Shown: positions 40,062 through 43,000, counted from the first letter of the stretch. The stretch is DNA of 64,000 nt from Escherichia coli O157:H7 (GCF_013167455.1 NZ_CP038328.1), one strand, 5' to 3'. Program-made: the numbers.

Positions 40062-43000
40062 TTAATAAGTGAGAGAATATTATTATTAACACCCTTAACC
40101 AAGGTGCTAATGTGATAAAAAAAATATTTATCTCGATGCTACCCAACATACGACTCATTTATTTTTCTCGGTTTCTCCTTGTATATATATGTTGCTTTAT
40201 AATTTTACTACGCACGTCAGGCGTATCTGTAACATAGCTCCGCATTATGCAATGCGACTTTGCATACAAATAGGAATAAATCTAATAGCTGTAGATTTGC
40301 TCCTGTATTTCCTGAACCAAGCGAGCCAGTACATGATGCATATGTCTGGAAAATAATTCAGAGTAAGGATAAGTCCAGCTTTGTTGAATAAATCAGGTTT
40401 GGAATAAGCCCCCTCAGTTGGTAGCTACTGTCAGGTAATACGCACGTATTATGACATTCGTGCCCTCGTCATTTTGTTTAGTACACGCACTGTAGTGGCA
40501 CAGAACTTCTGCGACCTGACCATCCTAAATAGCTGCGCCGAATACCGCTACACTTTTAACAGCCCATATTTACCACCGGGGAATGGGCTCACGGTTTCCA
40601 TAAAATAATGAACATTTTTAAGCAGTTACCACATTGAACGGCACTGATGATTGCGCGTTATCGTATCGTGAAGCGCCTGCTATAACCGCTCAACATGATT
40701 CACCCACGGCGAGTAAACTGGCTGATAAATCACTCTGAACTTCGGATTTTCTTTCAGCCAGCGCTGTGTTTCCCGACTTTTATGGATGATGTAGTTGTCC
40801 ACTATGAGCGTGATAGGTTTATCCCGTCGGTATGTCAATTTCAGATGTTTCAACAGACTGATAAATAAGGCTGAGCTTTTGCTGTTGCCACCCACATAGC
40901 TGACTTTGCCCGTTCCACTATGTAAAGCACCAGCCAGATAGTATTTTTCATTCTGCCCCGGTGTTACCACATGTTTTTGCTGTCTGCGAAGTTGCCAGTC
41001 CGCACCGGTTTTGGGATTAAGATAGATATACACTTCATCTTCATAAAAGACCGGATGCTCCGCACTACATTCGTCCAGTGCTTTGTGAATTGCTGCTTTA
41101 TGCGGGTTACGGGTACGCAGGGTTGGCGCAGCCCTGCGCCACACAAGCCCGACTAATGGCAACCAGCGGCGAACGGTTCCGGCATGTAACTGGCACTCGG
41201 TTATCTCGTTGATTTTTATTGCCAGCAGTTCTGTACTCCAGCGTGAACGCTGATAGCCAAAATATCCGGGAGAGTGTTTTATCAGTTCACGAAACAATGT
41301 GCAGATATGCTCAAACGGCCAGCGGCGGGAACGTCCTGCGGGTAATGATTTCAGACCTTCAACACTCGACAGCGTGAACCAGTTAATCCAGCGCCTGACG
41401 GAGGAACGGGCGCAGCAGAGCGTTCTGGCAACGTCACTGACGCGAGCGCTCCGGTGCAGCATCAGCATGGCGGTCAGCCTGCGGGCATAATTTTTATCGT
41501 GAGTTTTATAGATTGCTTTTTGCATCAGGCGTCATTCGTCGCGGGGAATTGGTGCTATGATCGGCATCGCTCAGTCCGGTTAGGGGGGGATTTTTGGCGA
41601 TTGATCAGATCGCACAATCCGGGCTGAGTTCCCTTTCATTGATCTACTATTCGGCGCAGCTATTTAGTTGGTGATTTTGAACTTCTGCTTTGCTACTAAG
41701 CAGCCTGCGTTTTCAGGAAAATACGTGATGTGATCCTGCAACTCAGCAACAGTTCGGTTGATTCAACAAAGCGTTTTTTAACAATAATTCTTCATTGTAA
41801 AAAGCATCTTCAGTTGTGATCAAATATTATTATTCTTATTGGTGTTCTCATATAATGAAATAGAATTAATTTTAGCCCCCCTACACAAGTGGCTGAGCTT
41901 CTCTACTCAATTTTAGAAAGTTTATTATTTATGTATTTCATATAACTGTCTATTTCCCCAGGCATGTAGCTAAAGATTTCTCCCATTTCACGTGCGATAA
42001 TCATTTCAGATTTTACTGCCTTTAACTCTGGTAACTCATAATTTAATTCCTGCATGATATCTCTTTTTATATTATATAATTCTATAAATCTATTTGCCCG
42101 TTGTTCTCCTAGAGGGCTGTCATTTCTGTACACAACAACTATGTATAAAAAATCATTATTTTCTTTAGGGAAGATCTTACAACAAATGTCCGGAAGCTCA
42201 CATAATGCATGTAAATCAGGATTGTATAAACTATCTACAGAAAACTGCCCCATTGGGCGTTTTCCGGATATAACTGTTAGCCAGCTTCCTTCCGGTGTAC
42301 TGGCTTCATTTCTGGAAATAGGTTCAAACGCTTCTGGACATACAGAATACATAGTCTTCATATAAGAAAACCGTCTGGCTTTCTCGTTAACAAATTCTTC
42401 CTGTTTTAGTTCAGCTACTCCTCTGGTTATACCGGATATATACTTCTTATCATATATATTGGGTGATTCATTAAAGTAATCATGTTTAATTTCCGGGTAA
42501 ATATTTTTCACCACATGTTCAGCATATTTAGTATTTATAGGGGACACGCCCTGAGTATTAGTAACAGGATTAATCATCTGAATCTATACCTAAAGAACGA
42601 TATTTTTCAACCACAACCGGAAGACTTACCATGAACTGCAGGTATACATACTGGTATTCGGTATAATATTTTCATGCTTAAATTCAATAAAATCACAAAA
42701 AGCATTATAATCGTGTAACGATGAATAGTTAAAATGCCGCTTGATACCCTTTCCTAGACCATCATAATATGGATGAGCGTCAACTTTACTCTTCATAATA
42801 TCGAGGCCTGCAAGTAATGCTGGATGATTACTACGATTGACAACTATCGCACCATTTTCAAGACTTTTTATCTCATCATTACAATCTACATGCACAGCGA
42901 TACCATCAGGAGCATACAGGACTCCTAATTTATCGGTAATAATCATGTCGGCATCAAGATATATACATCCGCTACAGGGCGATATGTTATGGCATCCAGT

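Follow-up and report, generated by a model that had tools for sequence, protein, structure and literature searches.

An IS630-family element with a decayed transposase gene lies between nleE and efa1/lifA in a pathogenicity island of Escherichia coli O157:H7

Within a 64,000-nucleotide stretch of DNA from Escherichia coli O157:H7 (GCF_013167455.1, NZ_CP038328.1), hereafter referred to as the window, we examined an insertion sequence (IS) that lies between nleE and efa1/lifA. The element belongs to the IS630 family, has defined ends and a target duplication, carries several inactivating lesions in its transposase gene and is fixed at one locus; it is presumably now immobile. We consider it very probable that the element is a fossil that arose from a single insertion between nleE and efa1/lifA, lost its transposase through decay and is now a passive passenger of the island. 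The proposed history begins with an IS630 (Tc1/mariner-like) element that would have inserted once, by cut-and-paste, into the TA of a CTAG within the nleE-efa1/lifA intergenic DNA. The transposase gene would then have decayed through the conversion of Arg12 to opal, Trp300 to amber and Gln318 to ochre, through a 4-codon deletion and through many missense changes, and the dead element would since have ridden passively with the island through enterohaemorrhagic E. coli (EHEC) and enteropathogenic E. coli (EPEC) lineages, without a transposase of its own.

An earlier note on this DNA, made from the sequence alone, had described an IS630-family transposase pseudogene, and the homology evidence bears this out. 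The product matches the Pfam profile DDE_3 (E = 4e-16) and, at its N-terminus, the helix-turn-helix (HTH) profiles HTH_23, HTH_29, HTH_32 and HTH_33. When the stop codons were bridged, the DDE_3 match improved to E = 6e-18 and its end moved from profile position 125 to position 140 of 146, and this lengthening indicates that the sequence beyond the stops is still transposase. A tblastn search with the IS630 transposase covered 41567-40551 at 87.8% identity over 343 amino acids (aa), and RefSeq also annotates the gene as a pseudogene. In the alignment of relatives, 35 residues separate the second Asp (LIVDN) from the Glu (NHVE), which is the DD35E spacing, and all three residues are kept in the window copy, their catalytic role being assigned by Pfam profile alignment and family knowledge. 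The element therefore has the features by which the family is recognised, namely HTH and DDE_3 domains, the DD35E triad, short terminal repeats around a single open reading frame (ORF) in about 1.1-1.2 kb, and a TA/CTAG target, the last of these being read from the flanks. With three in-frame stops and a 4-codon deletion, it is not autonomous, and it is a family member by descent and a pseudogene.

The earlier note had placed the gene at 40563..41525 and had counted two nonsense codons. The interval lies inside the gene, but its ends were wrong, as the ancestral frame starts at the ATG at 41567-41565 and stops at 40548-40550; the ATG at 41525 is Met15 of the ancestral protein. Both of the nonsense codons are real, although a third had been missed, and the copy also lacks four codons and has 22 missense changes that are unique to it. 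The features of the frame are as follows.

40548..41567, minus strand: ancestral transposase frame, 340 codons including the natural stop, with three nonsense codons.
41532..41534, minus strand: nonsense codon 1, TGA at codon 12, where relatives have CGA (Arg).
40680..40682, minus strand: nonsense codon 2, TAG at codon 296 (Trp300 in intact numbering), where relatives have TGG.
40626..40628, minus strand: nonsense codon 3, TAA at codon 314 (Gln318 in intact numbering), where relatives have CAA or CAG.
41094..41099, minus strand: junction of the 12-bp in-frame deletion (41096/41097), from which four codons are gone; relatives have GATGAAAAGATG/A, which encodes DEKM or DEKI.
40548..40550, minus strand: natural stop TAG, common to intact relatives and 4 nt from the right inverted repeat.
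40680..41525, minus strand: longest surviving ORF, 281 aa (Met15-Leu295) plus stop, with the C-terminal 44 residues missing.

From the ATG at 41525, the frame runs for 281 codons to the TAG at 40680-40682, after which it reads QALHDTITRNHQCRSMW, the TAA at 40626-40628 and LLKNVHYFMETVSPFPGGKYGLLKV, and ends with the TAG at 40548-40550, as the earlier note had described for the interrupted part. Alignment to intact IS630-family transposases, the check proposed in that note, showed that the 343-aa homologs continue past both stops to the shared natural stop, and no intact homolog ends at the first of them. The interpretation of these two stops as Trp-to-amber and Gln-to-ochre point mutations, rather than the result of an indel, also agrees with the alignment, in which five intact 343-aa relatives have Trp and Gln codons at these sites. 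All three nonsense changes are C:G-to-T:A transitions. The amber at codon 296 falls only 3 codons past the catalytic Glu, and the 281-aa remnant is presumably catalytically dead; public assemblies include a 262-aa gene call for this ORF.

We compared the substitutions unique to each lineage. The window copy has 27 synonymous, 22 missense and 3 nonsense changes, and the corresponding synonymous:missense:nonsense counts are 46:12:0 in ISEc33 and 19:10:0 in the p19KM2326 element. These counts fit relaxed constraint after a stretch as a working gene. The four-codon deletion is not a natural length variant, because the closest intact proteins are all 343 aa long.

The boundaries of the element were set by its inverted repeats, by its flanks and by end-to-end alignment with IS630 and ISEc33, and comprise the following features.

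40525..41667, minus strand: whole IS630-family element.
41648..41667, minus strand: left terminal inverted repeat, at the transposase 5' end; the minus strand reads CTAAATAGCTGCGCCGAATA.
40525..40544, plus strand: right terminal inverted repeat, at the transposase 3' end; CTAAATAGCTGCGCCGAATA.
40526-40527 and 41665-41666: TA target duplications, within a C-TA...TA-G context.
41568..41647, minus strand: 5' untranslated region (UTR), 4 bp shorter than in relatives and containing a C7 run.

Counted from C to G, the element is 1143 bp long with a single transposase frame, which is 16 bp shorter than the 1159 bp of IS630 and ISEc33. The terminal inverted repeats of about 20 bp that the earlier note mentioned are a perfect 20-bp match, although they lie outside the coordinates that it gave; by a hand estimate, a perfect 20-bp inverted repeat would be expected about 1e-6 times in 1.4 kb. 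The outer 14 bp of both repeats are the same as in IS630 and ISEc33. Further in, position 15 of the left repeat is C, versus G in IS630 and ISEc33, and positions 15-16 of the right repeat are CG, versus TT in IS630, while only position 16 differs from ISEc33. Both arms have thus changed relative to those elements, and the window repeats are perfect, whereas the arms of the active IS630 and ISEc33 mismatch each other at positions 15-16. The flanks, ACCATCC-TA on one side and TA-GTTGGTGA on the other, reconstruct a CTAG target (...CCATCC-TA[element]TA-GTTGG...). Duplication of a TA is typical of the IS630/Tc1/mariner group (PMC2170065), and a preference for CTAG is reported for IS630 itself (PMC2170065, where Tenzen & Ohtsubo 1991 is cited by title). 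Within the 5' UTR, the plus strand has a G7 run at 41583-41589, where relatives have mixed sequence that is 4 bp longer. This homopolymer could be a slippage-prone tract, with no obvious consequence in a dead element.

To place the element among its relatives, we aligned it with four intact elements: an unnamed E. coli element of p19KM2326_1 (WP_073514810.1), an unnamed chromosomal copy of strain GF60 (WP_001354603.1), ISEc33, and IS630 of Shigella sonnei plasmid pSS_046 (NC_007385.1), the prototype of the family. All of them encode a 343-aa protein that begins MPIIAPI in one uninterrupted ORF, and all four are homologous to the window element from end to end. Nucleotide (nt) identity to the window element is 86.8% for p19KM2326_1, 85% for GF60, 83.3% for ISEc33 and 85.9-86% for IS630, and the ISEc33-type protein cluster has 88% aa identity. 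Like IS630, the window element has a single ORF, short repeats, HTH and DD35E motifs and a TA/CTAG target. It differs from IS630 in being 16 bp shorter (12 bp of coding sequence and 4 bp of 5' UTR) and in having three nonsense codons, 22 unique missense changes and perfect repeats. By ISfinder convention, copies of the same IS share roughly at least 90% nt or at least 95% aa identity. At 85.9-86.0% nt and 87.8% aa identity, the window element falls outside IS630 in the strict sense, nor is it the same IS as ISEc33, and it is a distinct member of the IS630 family, either unnamed or separately named.

No closer intact relative emerged. The best intact element in an E. coli genome is 86.8% identical at the nt level, and among approximately 5.8 billion protein clusters, the best intact proteins are 88% identical and 343 aa long, while the only 100% match is the 262-aa call of the truncated ORF itself. 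The sublineage is known only as a dead copy. Intact relatives are present in multiple copies on plasmids of Klebsiella, Enterobacter, Citrobacter and other genera, whereas the window element is dead and occupies a single locus. A set of 608 plasmid records in the 90-95% identity band was considered as a source of close relatives but proved to consist of 39-bp inverted-repeat fragments, mostly from Klebsiella. These fragments correspond to query positions 1106-1144, match the right end at 94.9% and are present on hundreds of Klebsiella plasmids; judging from the title of PMC4785139, they may be delta-ISEc33 remnants next to blaKPC-2.

We next considered how the element is distributed. Copies of at least 99% identity were found in 558 complete E. 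coli records, which include O157:H7, O55:H7, O26, O103, O111, O121 and O145. The copies of O103:H2 and of strain PS1Thumoskin9 have the same three stops and 1-2 base differences, and in all three genomes inspected (PA20, O103:H2 and PS1Thumoskin9) the copy of at least 99% identity lies at the nleE/efa1 locus. An empty site was sought in 5,426 complete E. coli genomes with a query in which 250-bp stretches of the two flanks met at a single TA, the expected sequence between nleE and efa1 being CCATCCTAGTTGG. The flanks matched in 602 of these genomes, in every case as two separate halves and never contiguously. Because the flanks are never joined, the insertion is taken to predate the spread of the island module, and neither an excision nor a pre-insertion allele was found among the 602 flank-carrying genomes. 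When compared with O103:H2, the element shows 2 differences in 1144 positions, and the whole 7776-bp region shows 13 mismatches and 3 gaps. Element and flanks thus diverge at the same rate, as expected of a passenger. Neither blastn nor tblastn found further copies in the 64-kb window.

One element outside the island shares part of this sequence. The E. coli plasmid p542099_1 (CP091385.1; L009:3001-4143) has an element that is 95.2% identical to the window copy and is the sole such hit. Its 5' 812 bp are one base off the window copy, the difference giving an extra TGG-to-TGA stop, and have the same short 5' UTR, the same 12-bp deletion and the same TGA at codon 12. In its 3' 345 bp, the element is two bases off the S. 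sonnei IS630, with the TGG and CAA codons intact, and the breakpoint of the chimera corresponds to approximately window position 40870. Eight other pINV-type plasmids match this element and its 300-bp flanks over the full length, except that they are 16 bp longer, and are annotated with an IS630 transposase next to lpxM. With a full-length IS630 at the same site in these eight plasmids, the chimera is best explained by a recombination or gene conversion event in which window-type sequence would have replaced the 5' portion of an IS630 already in place. That the dead element had transposed to p542099_1 was considered and rejected, given the ordinary IS630 at that site in the eight plasmids. The shared codon-12 stop and 12-bp deletion indicate that both lesions predate the exchange.

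We also looked for other copies in the host genome, as the earlier note had recommended, and for a helper transposase. The O157:H7 chromosomes among the listed records have two megablast-level matches each, so that one further match does exist besides the window element; however, it is a pseudogene, beside espM1/nleG, that is 79% identical. Its location was assigned from 100% matches to the espM1-adjacent pseudogene of O145 rather than from directly read positions. That pseudogene (O145 strain RM9872, L006:3001-4132) has 100% identical copies in O157:H7 and O111. It shares with the window element its pseudogene annotation and its position beside type III effector genes, but it is closer to IS630 (approximately 89% identity) and far more degraded, with frameshifts and many stops. 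Both of the IS630-family remnants found in these EHEC chromosomes adjoin effector genes. No intact helper transposase was detected on the O157:H7 chromosome at megablast sensitivity, which more divergent IS630-family genes could escape, and tblastn found no IS630-type coding sequence on pO157 of strain Sakai.

The region that holds the element was placed by comparison with other genomes. Window positions 34400-47700 are 100% identical, without gaps, to positions 1328235-1341535 of the chromosome of E. coli O157:H7 PA20, and this region is an OI-122-type pathogenicity island. On the minus strand, the gene order is espL2, an IS1 fragment, nleB, nleE (41903-42577), the IS630-family element and a truncated efa1/lifA (from 40028), which starts 497 bp downstream of the element on the same strand.

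37897-40028, minus strand: efa1/lifA fragment, 5' part only, annotated as a frameshifted, C-terminally truncated pseudogene with a TcdA/TcdB glycosyltransferase domain.

The first ORF of this fragment is 433 aa long (38727-40028). Full-length efa1 is present at the same position in O103:H2 and PS1Thumoskin9, and the window alignment breaks approximately 3.8 kb into the gene. An IS3-family element of the IS1203/IS629 type follows the efa1/lifA fragment at 36641-37854. In addition, window positions 52992-53654 (663 bp) are, in inverted orientation, 99.5% identical to part of an ISEc8 (IS66-family) copy at approximately 34475-35137, and the window thus has a second, at least partial, copy of ISEc8. 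The IS630-family pseudogene is already known through RefSeq annotation: the label "IS630 family transposase; internal stop" appears in all three records inspected (PA20, O103:H2 and PS1Thumoskin9), and the RefSeq pseudogene interval for the element corresponds to window positions 40548-41525. A literature search on EDL933 and Sakai locus tags next to nleE returned nothing specific to the pseudogene.

Several observations nevertheless weigh against the reading of the element as an inert fossil. The ratio of missense to synonymous changes is 0.93, which is below the approximately 2.5-3 expected under purely neutral change, so that part of the branch predates the loss of function. The 281-aa ORF retains its HTH DNA-binding domains and the full DD35E triad, and that its product has lost every activity, such as the binding of element ends, is something that we infer from the lesions. 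Finally, the terminal repeats are intact, and a foreign IS630-type transposase could in principle mobilise the element, although we judge this very improbable. The earlier note had raised the same idea of mobilisation in trans, and our results lend it no support. As a full explanation, in which the element would remain active as a non-autonomous transposon, with an IS630-family transposase supplied from elsewhere, it draws on the perfect 20-bp repeats with outer 14 bp as in the active IS630 and ISEc33, on the circulation of intact IS630 and ISEc33 on plasmids of Enterobacteriaceae, and on p542099_1, where the 5' 812 bp of window type occur outside the island. However, that plasmid copy is a recombinant attributable to gene conversion of an IS630 already at the site, and the candidate helper elements have other bases at repeat positions 15-16. 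Moreover, O157:H7 chromosomes yielded just one further IS630-family locus, a heavily frameshifted pseudogene, pO157 of Sakai has no IS630-type coding sequence, the 602 flank-carrying genomes include no empty site, and each copy of at least 99% identity in the three genomes inspected lies at nleE/efa1. Occupation of multiple loci and presence/absence polymorphism, as expected of a mobilisable derivative resembling a miniature inverted-repeat transposable element, were both unseen. Taken together, we regard continued movement in trans as very unlikely.

Slightly less likely still is co-option, in which the 281-aa HTH product would serve as a DNA-binding regulator or the element would supply promoter or terminator signals to efa1/lifA. 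All 602 genomes that have its flanks have kept the element, its residual ORF keeps the HTH domains, and it lies between the transcription units of nleBE and efa1 and shares the orientation of efa1, all of which would suit such a role. In contrast, its rate of divergence equals that of its flanks, as in neutral hitch-hiking on a recently spread island, and nonsense codon 1 cuts the residual ORF off from the native start and its upstream context. Of the two variants seen, one alters the residual ORF (R to H in O103:H2) and the other falls past its stop, and in the p542099_1 chimera an additional stop interrupts the 5' half that it shares with the window copy. We therefore give little credence to the idea that the element is kept because it is useful to the island, whether through a DNA-binding product or through signals that separate nleBE from efa1/lifA expression. 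A functional gene whose stops reflect sequencing or assembly errors, or programmed read-through, has a negligible probability; nothing spoke for it, and it came into question only since each of the three stops arises from one base change. The sequence is identical in hundreds of independently sequenced complete genomes, and the O103:H2 and PS1Thumoskin9 copies have the same stops; recoding does not account for stops of three kinds, the loss of four codons and 22 missense changes at positions that relatives conserve, and intact relatives use one uninterrupted ORF. Replication across assemblies, together with the number and variety of the lesions, in practice rules out sequencing error and recoding.

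Pathogenicity islands of EHEC harbour many decayed insertion sequences, and an element that is, very probably, a passive fossil is an ordinary one of little consequence. Were the element useful to its island after all, its capacity to pass sequence to live IS630 copies by recombination, as in p542099_1, would make it a reservoir that disables active IS630 copies. The description of the element is corrected to one with three nonsense codons and a 4-codon deletion, a transposase start at 41567 and ends at 40525 and 41667. In practical terms, the element has some use in marking the nleBE-efa1 module of OI-122-type islands, since it is stable and independent of lineage.
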